Virus genome (UHGV): UHGV-0162637
Reading direction: 5' to 3' (one strand)
From: a virus
DNA: 13,110 bases
Of this stretch, positions 5,833 to 10,955 are shown in pieces. The notes under the pieces are model-generated. The model had not been told where the DNA came from. It worked only from the letters and a program-made list of their open reading frames with translations, and ran no database searches. The translations under genes and the position numbers were made by a program. How positions within the stretch are numbered: position 1 is the stretch's first letter; each line of letters starts with the position of its first letter.

Positions 5833-5857
5833 AAATAAAAAAGGGGCGAAAGCCCCT
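5833..5857 (-). terminator. intrinsic terminator immediately after the repressor gene
   Basis: Minus strand: TAA stop, then GGGGC-TTTC-GCCCC hairpin followed by TTTTTTATTT. Classic rho-independent terminator. Confidence 0.75.
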
Positions 5858-6507
5858 TAAGGAAGGTTTGCTAGCTTGGCATCAACGACAACGCCAATGA
5901 TTTTACAGTTCCCATTGATTTCAATCATTGGGTATTGTGGATTGAGTGGTTTCAGGAATTTTCTACCGGCATCAATAACTAACTTTTTGAATGTCGCCTC
6001 GTTTTCTCCTTCAAGTTTGGCGACTACCAGCTTTCCATTACGTGGTTCGACTTCTGGGTCGACGAGAATAATCATCCCCTCAGGAATACTCAGTCCTGCC
6101 GGGGCAGTCATTGAATCGCCTTTAACGTCGAGCCAAAAAGAGTCTTCAGAACAATCTACCGTTGTGTCGTACCAGTTATCTATTGCACGCCTATGATATG
6201 GCTCTACAGCTTCCATCCAACATCCTGCGCTTACCCAACTAATTAGAGGATACGAACCTCTTGGATCATGCCTGCTGTGATAGGCAATGTTTGAAAGACT
6301 ATCCTCTCCTTTCAACAGGTAATCAGGGGAGCACTGCAAAGCCTTGGCTAAGGCCAATAGGTTTTCGCCATTGGGCTCAGTTTCAGATCGCTCCCATTGG
6401 GAAATAGCAACATTAGACACGCCAACCATCTTTCCAAGGGCAGCCTGCCTAATCTTGAGTTCTTTTCTGCGAGCGCGAATACGCTCACCCATCAGTTGTG
6501 TATTCAT
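5857..6507 (-). CDS. c2: C2/CI-type prophage repressor (HTH plus S24 LexA-like autopeptidase domain), P22 C2 family
   Basis: 216-aa product MNTQLMGERIRARRKELKIRQAALGKMVGVSNVAISQWERSE...GVVVDAKLANLP matches my recollection of P22 C2 nearly throughout. Divergent from cro across an operator region. Confidence 0.9.
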   Translation of the reverse strand: MNTQLMGERIRARRKELKIRQAALGKMVGVSNVAISQWERSETEPNGENLLALAKALQCSPDYLLKGEDSLSNIAYHSRHDPRGSYPLISWVSAGCWMEAVEPYHRRAIDNWYDTTVDCSEDSFWLDVKGDSMTAPAGLSIPEGMIILVDPEVEPRNGKLVVAKLEGENEATFKKLVIDAGRKFLKPLNPQYPMIEINGNCKIIGVVVDAKLANLP

Positions 6508-6587
6508 AGTTAAGACATCTTAAATAAACTTGACTTAAGATTCCTTTGGTGGATAATTTAAGTGTTCTTTAATTTCGGAGCGAGTCT
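6508..6587. promoter_or_regulatory. OR operator region with PR (and divergent PRM)
   Basis: Three 18-bp P22-type operators: AGTTAAGACATCTTAAAT (6508-6525), a TTAAG-containing site around 6528-6549, and ATTTAAGTGTTCTTTAAT (6556-6573, as I recall for P22 OR1). PR: -35 TTGACT (6530-6535), -10 GATAAT (6552-6557), GGAG SD before cro. Confidence 0.8.
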
Positions 6588-6888: not shown

Positions 6889-7185
6889 ATGGCACAAGCA
6901 AGCTACAGCAAGCCAACACAGCGAGAAATTGATCGCGCTGAAACTGATTTACTCATCAACCTGTCAACGCTTACCCAGCGCGGTCTGGCAAAGATGATTG
7001 GCTGTCATGAATCGAAGATAAGCAGAACGGACTGGAGATTTATTGCTTCGGTCTTGTGTGCTTTCGGAATGGCATCAGACATCAGTCCGATTAGCAGGGC
7101 TTTTAAGTATGCGCTTGATGAAATCACAAAGAAAAAATCCCCGGCCGCCACCGAGGATTTTAAGCAAATTGATATGCAATTCTGA
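6889..7185 (+). CDS. cII: CII-like transcriptional activator (lambda CII / P22 C1 family), 98 aa
   Basis: AGGAAA SD; C-terminus ...TKKKSPAATEDFKQIDMQF parallels lambda CII ...TNKKRPAATERSEQIQMEF (recalled); central HTH-like segment; canonical position after cro and nutR. Confidence 0.85.
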   Translation: MAQASYSKPTQREIDRAETDLLINLSTLTQRGLAKMIGCHESKISRTDWRFIASVLCAFGMASDISPISRAFKYALDEITKKKSPAATEDFKQIDMQF

Positions 7186-7217: not shown

Positions 7218-7379
7218 ATGACAAAACGTCGTAAGAAATACCAGGAAAAAGAAGAGATTCGACACCCTGATTCACCTGAGGGATTAGTGGTAGCCGCAGC
7301 AAATAACAGGGCGTTCGCAGAGCGCCTTGTTGGTGTTTACAGACTAGCCAAAGCAGGAGTGAAACATGGGCGTCGTTAA
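7218..7379 (+). CDS. hypothetical small basic protein (53 aa) between cII and the O-like gene
   Basis: ATG at 7218 preceded by ACAGGAG at 6 nt; product MTKRRKKYQEKEEIRHPDSPEGLV... . Its 3' end overlaps the O-like start by 14 nt. Below the ORF-track size cut-off. Confidence 0.4.
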   Translation: MTKRRKKYQEKEEIRHPDSPEGLVVAAANNRAFAERLVGVYRLAKAGVKHGRR

Positions 7380-8256
7380 GTTAGCTGATTACAGGCATAA
7401 CCCTGTACAACATCAGGAGGCATCCAGTATGGGGTATGTCTCTATACACCGCCAGTTTATGGACAGCAGGCTCTATAAGGACTCTCAGGCAGTACATCTT
7501 TGGCTTCACTTAATCCTCAAGGCTAATCACGAATCTACTGTCGTCAATACGGATATCGGTCCGATAACTGTTGATCGCGGTCAGATGATAACTGGACGCC
7601 CGTCGCTGGTCAGAGAAACATTCATTCCAGACAACAAAGTTCGGAGCTTATTACGGACTTTTGAGTCGAAAGGGATGCTTAATATTTGCTCGATGGGGAA
7701 GAAATTTAGCCTGTTTACAATTGTTAAATATGACGATTTTCAGGCAAAAAATTGTCCAACGGTTGTCCAACGATTGTCCAACGCAACCCCCAGTAATGGC
7801 GCGGCTCTCAGCGGAGATTGTCCAACGGTTGTCCAACGATTGTCCATAAACAATAATATAAATAATATCTCTAATACTGACGTATTAGAGAGTACCGCAG
7901 CAGACAAAAAGTCTGACAAGAAAAAACCTTCCGTTAGCTGTCAGGATGTTGTCGATGCTTACCACGAAATCCTTCCTGAAGCGCCAAGAATCCGCGCACT
8001 GAATGACAAGCGTAAAAACCAGATCCGAACGTTCTGGCGCAAAGCCGGAGTAATAACACGTCAACTTGACGGGCATGGGTTCACGATGCAGGACTGGAGA
8101 AATTATTTGAGCTACGTTGGCGAAAATTGCCGATGGATGTTCGAAGAGCGCCCAAACCATCAACGCGGAACCGTCTGGCACAAAAAGGGATTTGATTTCC
8201 TGCTTAACGATAATACCTACCTGAAAGTTCGTGAGGGTGAACACGATGACCGATAA
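7366..8256 (+). CDS. O: replication initiator protein (lambda O-like), origin iterons embedded in the gene
   Basis: Position after cII; the iteron cluster in mid-gene is translated as the repeat CPTVVQRLSN. AGGAG SD before ATG 7366; an alternative in-frame ATG at 7429 has an AGGAGG SD, so the true start may be 7429. Confidence 0.8.
   Translation: MGVVKLADYRHNPVQHQEASSMGYVSIHRQFMDSRLYKDSQAVHLWLHLILKANHESTVVNTDIGPITVDRGQMITGRPSLVRETFIPDNKVRSLLRTFESKGMLNICSMGKKFSLFTIVKYDDFQAKNCPTVVQRLSNATPSNGAALSGDCPTVVQRLSINNNINNISNTDVLESTAADKKSDKKKPSVSCQDVVDAYHEILPEAPRIRALNDKRKNQIRTFWRKAGVITRQLDGHGFTMQDWRNYLSYVGENCRWMFEERPNHQRGTVWHKKGFDFLLNDNTYLKVREGEHDDR
7753..7880. repeat. lambdoid replication origin: six iterons plus AT-rich region
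   Basis: TTGTCCAACG at 7753, 7764 and 7775, then again at 7818 and 7829, with a variant TTGTCCATAA at 7840 (11-bp periodicity, two clusters 33 bp apart), followed by an AT-rich stretch 7850-7880. Same architecture as lambda ori inside O. Confidence 0.8.
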
Positions 8257-8788
8257 TTTTTATGCGCCGCCCCATAGCATCGAGGCAGAGCAGGCGGTGA
8301 TTGGTGGATTGCTTCTGGATGATGACAGCAGTGAGCGCGTCCAGAAAGTTCTGGCGATGCTGAAGCCTGATTCATTTTACAGCCGACCACACAAAATCCT
8401 TTTCGAAGAAATAACCAGAATGCACCGGGAGCAAAAGCCAGTAGATGGCCTGACGCTTTTCGATGAACTGGAGCGTAAATCGTTAACGGTGTCTGTTGGC
8501 GGTTTTGCTTATATCGCTGAGATCGCAAAGAACACGCCAAGCGCAGCAAACATCGTTGCCTATGCAATGCAGGTTCGTGAAACCGCAATGGAACGCTACG
8601 CCATCAACCGCATGACTGAAGCGACGGAATTGCTCTATCTCACAGTAAAAGCCGCCGGTGTGTGGGCGGGTGGCATTGAAACACCTTCGGTGGAAACTCC
8701 ATCGGAAGGTTCAAAATTTTTTGGTTTTGATATGGATAACGAATTCATCAGTGGTTTTGATGTAGGAGCATGGGGAAAATTACTCTGA
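8246..8788 (+). CDS. DnaB-family replicative helicase, N-terminal domain only (truncated, likely non-functional fragment)
   Basis: ATG 8246 with GAGGG SD, overlapping the O stop. Residues PPHSIEAEQAVIGGLLLD...SVGGFAYIAEIAKNTPSAANIVAYA align with the E. coli DnaB N-terminal domain (recalled). Similarity ends after about 140 aa and the ORF stops at 181 aa; the RecA-like ATPase domain is absent. Confidence 0.7.
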   Translation: MTDNFYAPPHSIEAEQAVIGGLLLDDDSSERVQKVLAMLKPDSFYSRPHKILFEEITRMHREQKPVDGLTLFDELERKSLTVSVGGFAYIAEIAKNTPSAANIVAYAMQVRETAMERYAINRMTEATELLYLTVKAAGVWAGGIETPSVETPSEGSKFFGFDMDNEFISGFDVGAWGKLL

Positions 8789-9690
8789 TGGCTAAAAATG
8801 AATTTAAACCATTTGCAACTGGCTCTGGTGCTAACGTAACAACTCAGACAGACTGGGAATCATTACCTGTCCTATCTGCTGGCTTTACATCGGGGAAGGC
8901 ATCAAGTGCTCAGGTGAACAAAGGTCTGAGGCAAGGAACGGCAATGGCGGCTGCTGTGGGGCAGTTTATCGCAGATAATACCAGTGAGGATGTGAAAGAT
9001 AATGGTGATATTGCGGGGCTCTCTGCGCAATTAGCGAGTGCGGTAGAGCAGGCTGCAACAGGACGGCTTATTGGTGTTCGCACAATAACGACATCCGGGA
9101 CTTATACGCCAACCCCAGGAACGAAAAGCATTATTGTTGAAGTCCAAGGCGCAGGCGGAGGAGGGGGCGGGGTTGGTACAACTAACTCTACCAGTGTTGC
9201 AGTTGGGTGTGGAGGGGGAGGTGGCGCCTACGCTAAATCCCGTATCACCAATTTAGACTCAGCATATACTGTAACCATTGGAGCTGGTGGAGCTGGTGGG
9301 GTTAACGGTAATGGAGGAAACGGTGGTGGATCTTCTTTCGGATCTATAACCGCTGGCGGTGGATTTGGTGGTGGTTCAGGAAATGGGGTACCTCCTATTA
9401 TTCAGAACTCACCAGGAATTCCTATAGCATCCGGAGGTAATATTTTAAATCTCTCTGGAGAGAATCCAACTATTGGCATGGCTATATCGACTAGCTCTAT
9501 CATCTCTGGTGGCGGAGGTAATAGTCCATTAGGTGTGGGTGGTAATCCACACGGCTCAGCGGGTATCGGTGTATTGCCGACTGGTTTCGGGGCTGGGGGC
9601 GGTGGGGCTAACGCATATGTGAATAATGCCACCCAATATAACGGAGCCGCCGGTGGTAATGGTATTGTTCTTATCTGGGAGTATGCATGA
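8788..9690 (+). CDS. glycine-rich protein (about 300 aa), possibly phage tail-fibre-like; function unknown
   Basis: Long intact ORF; ATG 8788 overlaps the stop of the helicase fragment (TGATG), with an alternative in-frame ATG at 8770. Non-glycine-rich N-terminal region of about 130 aa, then poly-Gly and GxGG tracts to the C-terminus ...GIVLIWEYA. Family assignment is tentative. Confidence 0.65.
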   Translation: MAKNEFKPFATGSGANVTTQTDWESLPVLSAGFTSGKASSAQVNKGLRQGTAMAAAVGQFIADNTSEDVKDNGDIAGLSAQLASAVEQAATGRLIGVRTITTSGTYTPTPGTKSIIVEVQGAGGGGGGVGTTNSTSVAVGCGGGGGAYAKSRITNLDSAYTVTIGAGGAGGVNGNGGNGGGSSFGSITAGGGFGGGSGNGVPPIIQNSPGIPIASGGNILNLSGENPTIGMAISTSSIISGGGGNSPLGVGGNPHGSAGIGVLPTGFGAGGGGANAYVNNATQYNGAAGGNGIVLIWEYA

Positions 9691-9866
9691 TGAAATATGC
9701 ATTGGTAGAAAATGATGTTGTGATTAACGTTATATTATGGAACGGCGATGGAAAACAATACGATGATTATCTCTGTATAAAGCTTGACGACAATAGCGTT
9801 GTTGGTGTTGGGTATACATATTCAGAGGGTAGGTTTTTGCCCCCTGAATATATTGATGAATTATAG
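9687..9866 (+). CDS. hypothetical small protein (59 aa) coupled to the glycine-rich gene
   Basis: ATG overlaps the stop of the glycine-rich ORF (ATGATGA); product MMKYALVENDVVINVILWNGDGKQYDDYLCIKLDDNSVVGVGYTYSEGRFLPPEYIDEL. Its 3' end overlaps the convergent acyltransferase stop by 6 nt. Below the ORF-track size cut-off. Confidence 0.35.
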   Translation: MMKYALVENDVVINVILWNGDGKQYDDYLCIKLDDNSVVGVGYTYSEGRFLPPEYIDEL

Positions 9867-10955
9867 TGGTGAAATATTTTTACTCATTATTAGTCTCCCT
9901 GTTCTTATAAATTTCTTTTCTACATATCTATATGATAAATCAGAAAAGACAACTAGCAAAAGAATGAAAGCGAAGAAGTATATAACTTTGTTTTCGTAAA
10001 TGACGGTGTTAAGGGAGAGTTTGTTCAAAACCTCCCTTGTTACATGTAGTAATGGTAAATGGCAAAGATAAATGCTATAAGATCTATCCCCAATCCAGTC
10101 CAGCATTTTATATGCTGGATTATCTTTTTTATCTACCACACCACCACTAATAAAACATAGAAATAATAATGCACCAGCAAAACCAATCGCAGGTAATGTC
10201 AATCTATAGTTAAAGTGCTGAGGGGCAACGAGTAAAACAAAAATGCAAACTATAATAAAAAATAGTCTTGTGCATTTATTGCTTACATAACACTTGCTTC
10301 CAGTTATGAATATAATTGCTCCCAGAAAGAATGCTTGTGGTCTAATCCACCAACCAATGGATTGATAGTACATTTGAGTTACTGGCAGGAAAGATGCAAT
10401 AGCTACTATGAATATGAAAATAATCGTCAGATTTTTCCTGTTAAAGAGCAGCATGATTGCCGCAATTATAGCATACAGTTGCCATTCCAAAGATAGAGAC
10501 CAGGTCACCGCATTCATTTGGTCACAATCATTTGCTGTTACTGCGCACCTATAGAAGTGGATATTAGAATAACCAAGTAGGGATGTATATAACGTAGTGA
10601 ATGATTTAAGAGGTGAAACACCCCAAGAAGGTTGCATAAAATAAGAGATTATTATACAGATGGTGCCCCATACAAGTAAGCATGGGGCTAGCCTAAATAT
10701 TCTTTTAGATAAAAATAATAAAAATATTTTAGTTGTTCTGCCGGTTTTTTTTATTTCCCCAGTTAAGCTTTTAGCCATCAAATATCCAGATATAGCCAAA
10801 AATATATCAACTCCAGCCCAATAATTAACGTAATTAAAACTGCTCAAATACCAATCTGGCGAAGGTAATCTATTTCTATAATGTTGTAGAATAACCATTA
10901 TTATGGCTACCGCCCTTAGCGCTTGAATGTCAAGGTTTTTATTATTTAGGGTCAT
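9861..10955 (-). CDS. acyltransferase family 3 integral membrane protein (O-antigen acetylase-like, Oac/OafA type)
   Basis: 364-aa polytopic membrane protein with the conserved N-terminal motif LDIQALRAVAIIMVILQHY and many hydrophobic segments. Visibly AT-rich compared with flanking DNA. Lies at the prophage/host boundary where P22- and Sf6-like phages carry O-antigen modification genes (recalled). Confidence 0.85.
   Translation of the reverse strand: MTLNNKNLDIQALRAVAIIMVILQHYRNRLPSPDWYLSSFNYVNYWAGVDIFLAISGYLMAKSLTGEIKKTGRTTKIFLLFLSKRIFRLAPCLLVWGTICIIISYFMQPSWGVSPLKSFTTLYTSLLGYSNIHFYRCAVTANDCDQMNAVTWSLSLEWQLYAIIAAIMLLFNRKNLTIIFIFIVAIASFLPVTQMYYQSIGWWIRPQAFFLGAIIFITGSKCYVSNKCTRLFFIIVCIFVLLVAPQHFNYRLTLPAIGFAGALLFLCFISGGVVDKKDNPAYKMLDWIGDRSYSIYLCHLPLLHVTREVLNKLSLNTVIYENKVIYFFAFILLLVVFSDLSYRYVEKKFIRTGRLIMSKNISPL

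Follow-up and report, generated by a model that had tools for sequence, protein, structure and literature searches.

Does the repeat array inside the O-like gene of virus genome UHGV-0162637 form a replication origin, to which type would such an origin belong, and could it still fire? The window analysed here is the whole stretch of 13,110 nucleotides, and all coordinates refer to it. The first-pass annotation had placed an origin within the O-like gene, and this placement is supported by the rep_origin feature of the Sf6 record, by the phage L paper and by the strong comparative evidence presented below. Very probably, a lambdoid (P22-like/Sf6-like) prophage module had its replication origin in this array, which is situated inside the linker-coding stretch of the initiator gene and survives here as a relic. 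Its presumed function as an origin rests on homology to other systems.

Five exact copies of TTGTCCAACG start at positions 7752, 7763, 7774, 7818 and 7829, and a sixth copy, cut short to TTGTCCATAA, begins at 7840. When one mismatch was allowed, TTGTCCAACG was matched five times on both strands of the 13.1-kb window against 0.8 matches expected, and none of 200 shuffled windows reached five. Tandem Repeats Finder reported a period of 11, with 3.0 copies at 7751-7783 and 2.8 copies at 7816-7846. The two clusters of 11-bp-spaced iterons noted on first inspection are thereby borne out as five exact copies plus a truncated one, and the repeat-finder check that had been suggested confirmed their periodicity; the first repeat had been put one base too far right, at 7753. 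Since the starts of the two triplets lie 66 bp apart (6 x 11), all six units fall on one 11-bp lattice, which corresponds to nucleotides 386-484 of the 891-nt initiator gene. Relative to relaxed B-DNA with 10.5 bp per turn, spacings of 11 and 66 bp do not place the sites all exactly on one face. In most of the family the third unit of cluster 2 is shortened to ..CCA[C/T]A. The AT-rich stretch that had been reported after the iterons is indeed there (Table 1), the GC content of 60-nt windows falling to 0.28-0.32. The element had been drawn to end at 7880, but it reaches beyond that position because a perfect palindrome directly follows the AT tract and carries it on to 7891.

Table 1. Coordinates of the origin region, the initiator gene and the helicase remnant in the window.
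Feature	Coordinates	Strand	Remarks
Intact replication initiator gene, 296 aa	7366..8256	+	Sf6 gp43 / HK620 / phage L gp18 type; 'O-like' by position
N-terminal winged-helix origin-binding domain (predicted), aa 24-124	7435..7737	+	AF2 pLDDT 80-93
Interdomain linker, aa 125-188, predicted disordered	7738..7929	+	holds the whole putative ori; pLDDT <50
Iteron cluster 1	7751..7783	+	three 11-bp units ATTGTCCAACG, GTTGTCCAACG, ATTGTCCAACG; core TGTCCAAC
Non-repeat spacer between clusters, 33 bp	7784..7816	+	length conserved in relatives examined, sequence variable
Iteron cluster 2	7817..7849	+	ATTGTCCAACG, GTTGTCCAACG, truncated third unit ATTGTCCATAA
AT-rich tract, presumed DNA-unwinding element	7846..7867	.	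21/22 A+T
Perfect palindrome TCTCTAATAC-TGAC-GTATTAGAGA, 10-bp arms	7868..7891	.	conserved dyad element of putative ori
C-terminal domain, aa 189-296, presumed helicase-recruiting	7930..8253	+	pLDDT ~80-90
Truncated DnaB-type helicase gene, N-terminal domain only	8246..8788	+	phage homology stops at ~8638

The product of the gene that contains the array was assigned to PHROG 345 ('replication initiation O-like', E=5.7e-85). Searches of Pfam and NCBIfam gave no family for it, only a sub-threshold match to DUF7376, and a search of solved structures with its sequence returned no match at E values up to 1; Rfam gave no family over the whole window. The AF2 model of the N-terminal domain has the topology H-H-EEE-H-H-E-E with a putative recognition helix at residues 89-101, and all of its fold matches are winged-helix DNA binders. 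The C-terminal domain is 25% identical to that of P22 gp18 (E=1.7e-4). In mEp235 the C-terminal domain is 100% identical, the N-terminal domain is only 49% identical and the iterons are different. An Erwinia phage combines a related N-terminal domain (46%) and related iterons with a different C-terminal domain (18%) and a lambda-P-like partner. Judged from these comparisons, the parts of initiator and origin are modular.

The origin of this module carries an annotation in close relatives already. Over its full length the initiator gene shows 98.3% nucleotide identity with Sf6 gene 43, and the rep_origin annotated at 28385-28480 in the Sf6 record corresponds to positions 7751-7846 of the window. 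The initiator is 78% identical to phage L gp18 at the amino acid level over the full length, and 82.5% identical over the tblastn match (residues 23-296). A putative ori is annotated at the corresponding place in the phage L record, and in the paper on this phage six 11-bp TGTCCAACGGA repeats are named as the likely origin (PMC8022706); the window repeat is identical to the iteron described there. Because the Sf6 record annotates the same repeats and the phage L paper describes the iteron, the origin in the window was already known. It represents one more copy and carries little weight alone. Six 11-bp TGTCCAACG units are shared with Sf6 gene 43, HK620, HK106, mEp234, HK629 and phage L gene 18, as are the AT tract and the palindrome at the equal gene position in the Sf6/HK620/phage L type. 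The window copy differs from the Sf6 type in the third unit of both clusters, where the inter-core base is changed from G to A, and by the spacer variant CAACCCCC. This type has a DnaB-type helicase gene downstream, whereas the window retains a truncated copy of that gene and lacks the remainder of the phage. By its initiator and its six repeats the ori sequence belongs to the Sf6/HK620/phage L type, in a module that is incomplete for lack of a functional downstream helicase. All database labels for this type of ori read 'putative', and the searchable literature contained no experiment on it in enterobacterial phages, only the phage L description and the work on lambda and SPP1.

We examined how far this architecture extends among more distant relatives. 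The 3+33+3 layout, the AT tract and the palindrome are kept in 36 relatives with 33-95% identity (31 genome loci and five phages). A scan of genome contigs found the two clusters 66 bp apart at 43 of 52 loci; the 31 of these 43 that were placed on the lattice (33-95% amino acid identity) all read 3x11 / 33 / 3x11, keep the AT tract and palindrome at a constant distance and reach a best 20-nt AT fraction of 0.80-0.95. All five phage relatives placed on the lattice had the same architecture with the 66-bp cluster spacing. An initial scan of viral contigs yielded only 98-99% identical loci, which were used for polymorphism and not for divergence. Among 70 close variants, polymorphism was located in the spacer and at inter-core positions, and none of the 44 sites of the AT tract and palindrome was polymorphic; in the spacer, 14 of 33 sites varied among near-identical genes.

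The palindrome displays signs of conserved pairing. As single-stranded DNA it is predicted to form a hairpin with a dG of -7.9 kcal/mol (z=-5). Across relatives 96.8% of cells were paired, compared with 28-46% in slid controls, and double changes were seen at all 10 pairs, which amounts to complete compensatory covariation. The arms measured 9-11 in 31 of 31 relatives. Picking the best palindrome per locus could have biased this result; such a bias was ruled out by 682 other 65-nt windows from the same loci, in which no arm exceeded 7. Whereas the arms vary, T[A/G]A[C/A] is retained at the centre.

Hairpin and AT tract together might instead constitute an intrinsic terminator of leftward (minus-strand) transcription and be no part of an origin. 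A consensus scan does list a minus-strand terminator-like stem at 7891-7868 with the tail TATTATTTAT, minus-strand 'terminator' features have been placed here automatically in the phage L record, and the covariation is equally consistent with an RNA or a DNA hairpin. However, with 3 G-C among its 10 pairs the stem is AT-rich and weak, its tail is not a clean U-run, and conservation of the centre with variable arms also speaks against this explanation. No well-matching leftward promoter was found downstream, and the only minus-strand promoter-like matches of the region score 9/12 and lie inside or upstream of the iterons. Moreover, lambda has a palindrome (GTCAGAGAATTC-n4-GAATCCTCTGAC, L002 663-690) in the equivalent position, and a short dyad, CCCCCT-AA-AGGGGG, was recognized by eye at the equivalent place in P22. 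This shared relative position suggests an origin-associated role, and we consider a terminator unlikely.

The repeats had been called the hallmark of a lambdoid ori, but the origin is not of the lambda/P22 kind: both the iterons and the N-terminal domain differ. Lambda and P22 have four dyad-symmetric iterons of 18-20 bp at spacings of 20, 24 and 23 bp, whereas the window has six asymmetric direct repeats of 11 bp, spaced at 11 bp. Pfam Phage_rep_O (PF04492) is matched by lambda O and P22 gp18 with E values of 1e-36 to 1e-38, but neither the window initiator nor its isolated N-terminal domain matched PF04492, and BLASTP detected no similarity of the initiator to lambda O (E=4.5). The origins of lambda and P22 had been proposed for comparison; what they share with this one is the layout only. 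This layout comprises an origin placed centrally in the initiator gene (~39-43% of its length) and between a DNA-binding and a helicase-recruiting domain, the order of iterons, AT-rich tract and palindrome from left to right, and the gene order cII-(orf)-O-helicase or loader. In addition, P22 gp18 has a distantly related C-terminal domain. The comparison shows that the label 'O-like' in the annotation of lambdoid phages covers two unrelated origin-binding systems.

A homologue of the N-terminal domain was found in G38P, the replisome organizer of Bacillus phage SPP1. 

In BLASTP, residues 20-127 of the initiator aligned with residues 2-112 of G38P (28% identity over 111 aa, E=7e-13). As in the window, the origin of SPP1, oriL, lies inside the initiator gene, gene 38, directly after the N-terminal domain; its AAACGACAGAG-type units recur every 11 bp and give way to an AT-rich region of the AACAATGAT type. 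The same repeats-then-AT layout is present in Staphylococcus phage SA7. Experiments have established that G38P binds the oriL repeats and that theta replication depending on oriL takes place in vitro (summarised in PMC6316719), so that the comparison links the Sf6/HK620 type to an experimentally understood system. The two are not identical: SPP1 has 4-5 contiguous units (AAACGACA core) in place of 3+33+3, its AT region is built of 9-bp repeats, and it encodes a separate loader, G39P, where in the window the next gene is the helicase itself. The C-terminal domain also differs, being Phg_2220_C in the SPP1-like phage 000TH010 and P22-gp18-like in the window.

Among the relatives examined, the iteron core varies together with the putative recognition helix, a correlation that is confounded by common ancestry. 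The helix DNKV[RK]SLLR pairs with core TGTCCAAC, DRVKSLLRKF with TGTCCAGCC, DRVQYLLRKF with TACCAGCA and [DN]RIKYLxxKF with TGCCAACA. This correlation could guide the design of orthogonal phage or plasmid origins. We tentatively propose, at somewhat less than even confidence, that the Sf6/HK620/L 'O' initiators and their origins are not of the lambda-O type and form one ancient module shared with SPP1 G38P and with phage or prophage homologues from Staphylococcus, Bacteroidia, Elusimicrobiales and Prevotella. In this module a winged helix would read 11-12-bp phased direct repeats through a simple code of swappable recognition helices. In Enterobacterales it would include an obligatory, so far undescribed third element, the palindrome with arms of 9-11 bp, a T[A/G]A[C/A] centre and compensatory changes, to which the present comparison draws attention. 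Under the same proposal, the palindrome could be a helicase-loading or priming hairpin.

The anatomy of the locus, its conservation, the selection on its DNA, the co-variation of iterons and protein and the homology to G38P can all be read from the sequence itself. Binding, stoichiometry, unwinding and helicase recruitment would follow from the homology to SPP1 G38P/oriL and the analogy to lambda O/ori-lambda. On this basis, the N-terminal winged-helix domain would bind the six direct repeats (core TGTCCAAC) head to tail, one domain per repeat, giving two three-unit arrays of bound initiator 66 bp apart on one lattice. The assembled complex may then distort or untwist the adjacent 22-nt AT tract, with the conserved palindrome beyond it presumably forming part of the element, and the C-terminal domain would recruit the phage's own DnaB-type helicase.

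Alternatively, the iterons could be a site of another kind, such as an autoregulatory, handcuffing or partition-like centromere site, with replication starting elsewhere. In favour of such a site, the fold matches of the N-terminal domain include TubR, a centromere-binding winged-helix protein (Foldseek probability ~1, E ~0.04, statistics that are generic for winged helices). TubR coats clusters of 12-bp direct repeats. The TubR-tubC repeats are a possible geometric analogue only, with one domain per helical turn; tubC is a partition centromere and not an origin, TubR has no sequence homology to the initiator, and no partition genes lie nearby in the window. G38P, for its part, also binds oriR, for which fork stalling rather than initiation was proposed (PMC6316719). 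Against a non-origin site stand the AT-rich tract directly beside the array throughout the family, the position of the array within a cII-orf-O-helicase replication module, inside its initiator gene, and the homology to G38P/oriL, the origin activity of which was reconstituted in vitro (PMC6316719). Genetic data cited for phage L likewise put origin specificity in the replication module (PMC8022706). Taken with these points, a site unconnected with initiation is quite improbable.

If the array is an origin, can it still fire in this genome? The helicase gene had been described as truncated, and this was corroborated in three ways. Pfam recognized DnaB by its N-terminal domain alone (aa 13-117 of a 185-aa ORF from GTG 8231), the RecA-like domain being missing; the TIGR03600 phage_DnaB model scored 144 bits against a cutoff of 499; and matches to phages and prophages stop at 8638, with unrelated sequence beyond. 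The full-length helicase gene of Sf6, gene 44, measures 1437 nt, and here the gene is cut after ~131 codons, all further rightward phage sequence is missing and the remnant is fused to the end of another prophage. The defective prophage adjoins dacD. With its helicase truncated and joined to another prophage's end, the origin should not fire on its own, and it is probably a silent relic. That no helicase means no firing is not certain, because 34 of 314 lambdoid phages have an O homologue but lack both helicase and loader (Genome Research 2025). The origin had also been called orphaned, which holds with respect to the lost helicase but not to the initiator gene, which is intact in cis.

A stranded origin might nevertheless matter to the host as a titration site for initiator, DnaA or factors that load the helicase. 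Both ori and initiator gene are intact, and the same remnant, seen on at least 24 contigs, has become fixed in a lineage. For lambda, inhibition of rep-lambda phages by iterons on a plasmid, in combination with oop, has been described (PMC3349717). That effect, however, needs a multicopy plasmid and oop transcription (PMC3349717), whereas the remnant is a single chromosomal copy. In one copy of the remnant an 11-bp slip frameshifts the initiator, which looks like neutral decay. The titration of DnaA, which the first-pass annotation had suggested, is rejected, as a scan for DnaA boxes (TTATCCACA) with at most one mismatch found none within the O gene (7366-8256). The nearest such boxes are at 6548-6556 and 8731-8739, and the cluster of DnaA boxes of a DnaA-dependent origin is absent. 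Titration of any of these factors therefore appears very improbable.

Finally, the array is translated, and the peptide CPTVVQRLS is encoded once per 33-bp triplet. The CPTVVQRLSN repeat had been described as tandem, but its two copies (aa 130-138 and 152-160) are separated by 13 residues. In seven relatives with the same core (48-95% amino acid identity), only 1 of 322 iteron core sites differed and none of 105 third-codon positions within cores did, compared with a rate of 0.29 at inter-core and spacer positions. As these substitution patterns indicate, selection is on the DNA and not on the peptide. Although the peptide is repeated in frame and homologues carry other twice-repeated peptides, such as VPTDYQQSA, there is next to no chance that the protein needs a repeated linker peptide (CPTVVQRLS x2) with the DNA periodicity as a by-product: 11 bp is not a multiple of 3, selection on a peptide cannot create iterons when the three units of one cluster, read in three frames, encode the unrelated CPT, VVQR and LSN, synonymous third positions in the cores are frozen, non-synonymous inter-core changes (for example V to D/G/A) are tolerated, and the region is predicted to be disordered and tolerates gains and losses of 22 aa. 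Peptide-level selection as the cause of the repeat was thus ruled out by the frame and synonymous-site evidence, and the repeated peptide is a passenger of the DNA-level repeat in a predicted disordered linker, the natural length variants of which differ by exactly 22 aa.

The element that the first-pass annotation had taken for an origin of replication lies inside an intact initiator ORF of 296 aa. Two clusters of three 11-bp-spaced iterons had been proposed, and these were recovered as five exact copies of TTGTCCAACG and a truncated sixth copy (TTGTCCATAA). When both strands of the 13.1-kb window were searched with at most one mismatch, the same five copies were the only matches (0.8 expected), and none of 200 dinucleotide-preserving shuffles of the window attained this number. 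Tandem Repeats Finder likewise called two arrays, both with period 11. A 33-bp non-repeat spacer separates the triplets, whose starts are 66 bp apart, so that all six units share one 11-bp lattice. The AT-rich stretch reported to follow the iterons was also present (21 of 22 nucleotides are A or T), and beyond it a perfect palindrome, TCTCTAATAC-TGAC-GTATTAGAGA, extends past position 7880, where the element had been thought to end. The observation as a whole was thus confirmed, and we consider it very probable that the element is a phage replication origin. The peptide repeat was described less accurately: CPTVVQRLS is encoded once per triplet (aa 130-138 and 152-160), but the two copies are 13 residues apart and not in tandem.

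Features of the remnant and its flanks in window coordinates
Feature	Position	Strand	Remarks
LexA-like repressor gene	5857-6507	minus	upstream of initiator ORF
P22-type cro, cII homologue, small orf48-like gene			upstream of initiator ORF
Terminator-like hairpin	7134-7161	minus	3' end of cII
Initiator ORF	7366-8256		contains the origin
Iteron cluster 1	7751-7783		exact copies start at 7752, 7763, 7774
Iteron cluster 2	7817-7849		exact copies start at 7818, 7829; truncated copy at 7840
AT tract	7846-7867		right after the iterons
Palindrome	7868-7891
DnaB-type helicase gene			downstream of initiator ORF; N-terminal domain alone retained
End of phage/prophage similarity	~8638
Glycine-rich tail-fibre-like gene	8770-9690		beyond helicase junction
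Acyltransferase gene	9861-10955	minus	beyond helicase junction

To place this anatomy among relatives, homologues were taken from phages and from one genome per species, which gave 52 loci at 26-95% amino acid identity. In 43 of these, which extend across Enterobacterales down to 33% identity, the strongest 28-nt direct repeat was 66 bp apart and had an internal 11-bp periodicity. Thirty-one of the 43 were placed on the 11-bp lattice, and every one consists of three units, a 33-bp spacer, a second set of three that ends in a truncated unit, an AT tract (AT content up to 0.80-0.95 in 20 nt) and a perfect palindrome whose distance from the first unit is 107-122 bp. This layout recurs in five phage relatives, namely phage L, mEp235 and phages of Klebsiella, Yersinia and Erwinia. 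The spacer is conserved in length and variable in sequence, while the iteron cores are lineage-specific (TGTCCAAC, TGTCCAGCC, TACCAGCA, TGCCAACA, AATCCAA and TCCCAGAAG). Initiator homologues were also found in three sizes, each step between them being exactly 22 aa (66 bp), or one triplet plus spacer, in the segment that corresponds to window 7738-7929: proteins of 274 aa (P0032-P0043) have one triplet, those of 296 aa two and those of 318 aa (P0001-P0022) three, which means that the iteron copy number of the origin is 3, 6 or 9 in nature. Such a 66-bp step preserves both the reading frame and the lattice.

The palindrome arms measure 9-11 bp at the origin in 31/31 loci, and the longest arms found in 682 65-nt windows elsewhere in these loci were 7 bp. 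In a gapless alignment of 22 distinct palindrome sequences, 96.8% of the cells were paired, as compared with 28-46% when the partner was slid as a control. Each of the ten pairs has changed on both sides, and nine have no unpaired cell; the centre reads T[A/G]A[C/A]. Folding of the palindrome as single-stranded DNA yields -7.9 kcal/mol (z=-5). Read on the minus strand, the palindrome is a weak terminator-like site, and the phage L record carries an automatic terminator label here.

Selection for the encoded peptide can be dismissed as the source of the repeats, because each iteron of a triplet falls in a different reading frame. Instead, the substitution patterns indicate that selection acts on the DNA of the origin. 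Among seven relatives with the TGTCCAAC core (48-95% amino acid identity), 1 of 322 core sites and 0 of 105 third-codon positions in the cores differ, whereas the difference is 0.29 in inter-core and spacer positions and 0.24 in the AT-plus-palindrome stretch. A set of 70 distinct, nearly identical genes shows polymorphism at 14 of the 33 spacer sites; changes in the iterons fall at unit positions 11, 1 and 2, and the AT-plus-palindrome stretch is invariant (0/44 sites). The window and its identical copies have an A for the usual G at 7773 and 7839, the inter-core base before the third unit (GATTGTCC versus GGTTGTCC). None of 80 IMG/VR relatives has this A in both clusters, and the paired change suggests that one cluster was converted by the other.

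The origin had been called lambdoid, and this reading holds for its layout but not for its family. As in lambda, the origin sits at ~40% of the initiator gene and runs from iterons to AT tract to palindrome, with the lambda palindrome in the equivalent relative position; in P22 a short dyad can be seen by eye there. However, lambda and P22 each have four dyad-symmetric iterons of 18-20 bp at 20/24/23-bp spacing, and their initiators share a Phage_rep_O N-domain (43% identical). The window initiator belongs to no Pfam or NCBIfam family, has no similarity to lambda O (E=4.5) and resembles P22 gp18 in its C-terminal domain alone (25% identity, E=1.7e-4). The window origin is therefore not of the lambda/P22 type, and the first-pass interpretation stands at its core while its family assignment and several details do not.

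The closest characterised homologue of the N-domain, for which Pfam has no model, is G38P, the replisome organizer of Bacillus phage SPP1 (28% identity over 111 residues, E=7e-13). In SPP1 gene 38, the N-domain coding region is directly followed by four to five 11-bp units of the AAACGACAGAG type and then by an AT-rich block; together these constitute oriL. G38P binds the oriL repeats with nanomolar affinity, unwinding is ascribed to the AT-rich region, and G38P, G39P and G40P together support theta replication of a supercoiled oriL plasmid in vitro (PMC6316719). About nine 11-bp units and an AT-rich block are present in a homologue from a Staphylococcus phage. More generally, each of the distant N-domain homologues, from Glaciecola, Spongiibacteraceae, Bacteroidia, Elusimicrobiales, Prevotella, SPP1 and Staphylococcus phage SA7 (loci L134, L135, L137, L138, L139, L143 and L144), has an array of 11- or 12-bp direct repeats just behind the coding part of the domain, with AT-rich DNA next to it. 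The C-domains attached to these N-domains vary (DnaB_2, Phg_2220_C, lambda-O-type or P22-gp18-type).

An AlphaFold model of the initiator, built on 28 homologues (mean pLDDT 67), has a confident N-domain (aa 24-124, pLDDT 80-93) and a folded C-domain (189-293), and residues 125-188, which are encoded by the origin, score below 50. Across 32 sequences the iteron core tracks a putative recognition helix (aa 89-99): the base before CCA is T where the helix has KS, G where it has KY, and A or C where it has QY. A lineage with a TGCCAACA-like scaffold but KS in the helix reads TGTCCAGCC, which fits direct readout, although this is confounded by phylogeny. Mosaic cases show that the N-domain and its iterons move as one unit, apart from the C-domain and helicase or loader. 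The mEp235 initiator is 100% identical to that of the window in the C-domain and 49% in the N-domain; the two share the AT tract and palindrome but mEp235 has different iterons (TACCAGCA), which places a recombination boundary at the origin. An Erwinia phage has a related N-domain and related iterons, but its C-domain is of the lambda type and its partner is lambda-P-like.

By analogy with SPP1 and lambda, from which binding, stoichiometry, unwinding and helicase recruitment are extrapolated, winged-helix N-domains would bind at all six phased sites, the resulting complex would put strain on the adjacent AT tract, and the C-domain would bring in the phage DnaB-type helicase. Titration of DnaA, which had also been suggested, finds no support, as there is no DnaA box within the element. 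In the whole window, nine DnaA-box-like 9-mers (at most one mismatch) were counted against 3.45 expected, a number attained by 1 of 200 shuffles; their positions are scattered.

As a putative origin, this feature is not new. The initiator ORF is 97.6-98.4% identical at the nucleotide level to genes of HK106, mEp234, HK629, Sf6, IME10, HK75 and others, and the Sf6 GenBank rep_origin feature ('repeat region reminiscent of the phage lambda origin; similar to phage HK620') projects exactly onto window 7751-7846. The phage L record has a putative ori at the matching place, and the phage L paper, which identifies its six 11-bp repeats as the likely origin, sets these against the four roughly 20-bp repeats of lambda/P22 (PMC8022706). 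No experimental test of an Sf6/HK620/L-type origin was found in the searchable literature. The window itself is of low interest. What the family-wide comparison adds is modest: the SPP1 link, a correlation of helix with iteron, the conservation of the palindrome, and copy numbers that vary in steps of 66 bp.

Initiator and origin are intact, but the helicase is truncated, as previously proposed: it lacks the ATPase domain and is joined after ~131 codons to unrelated sequence (junction region, window 8600-8800), and the remaining phage is gone. In other E. coli strains the right end of a different prophage, next to dacD, is made up of the tail-fibre-like and acyltransferase genes, so the element is what a deletion or fusion has left behind. 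Its origin should be silent unless helicase is provided in trans by a related phage; this is likely rather than certain, since some lambdoid phages naturally have no helicase or loader gene. The identical remnant, including the fused helicase ORF, is present on at least 24 public contigs beside dacD-sbmC-yeeA, and strain FDAARGOS_1250 has an independent deletion in which a similarly truncated helicase is fused directly to dacD. On one metagenome contig with the exact remnant (L148, 5110-6010), a fourth 11-bp unit in cluster 2 frameshifts the initiator, called as 164 aa, which points either to decay by slippage, the prophage being dead, or to an artefact of assembly. Rfam returned no family for the whole window. 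The hairpin at the end of cII is strongly terminator-like (12 pairs followed by TTCTTTGTGA), and in lambda and P22 the oop RNA terminator occupies the matching position.
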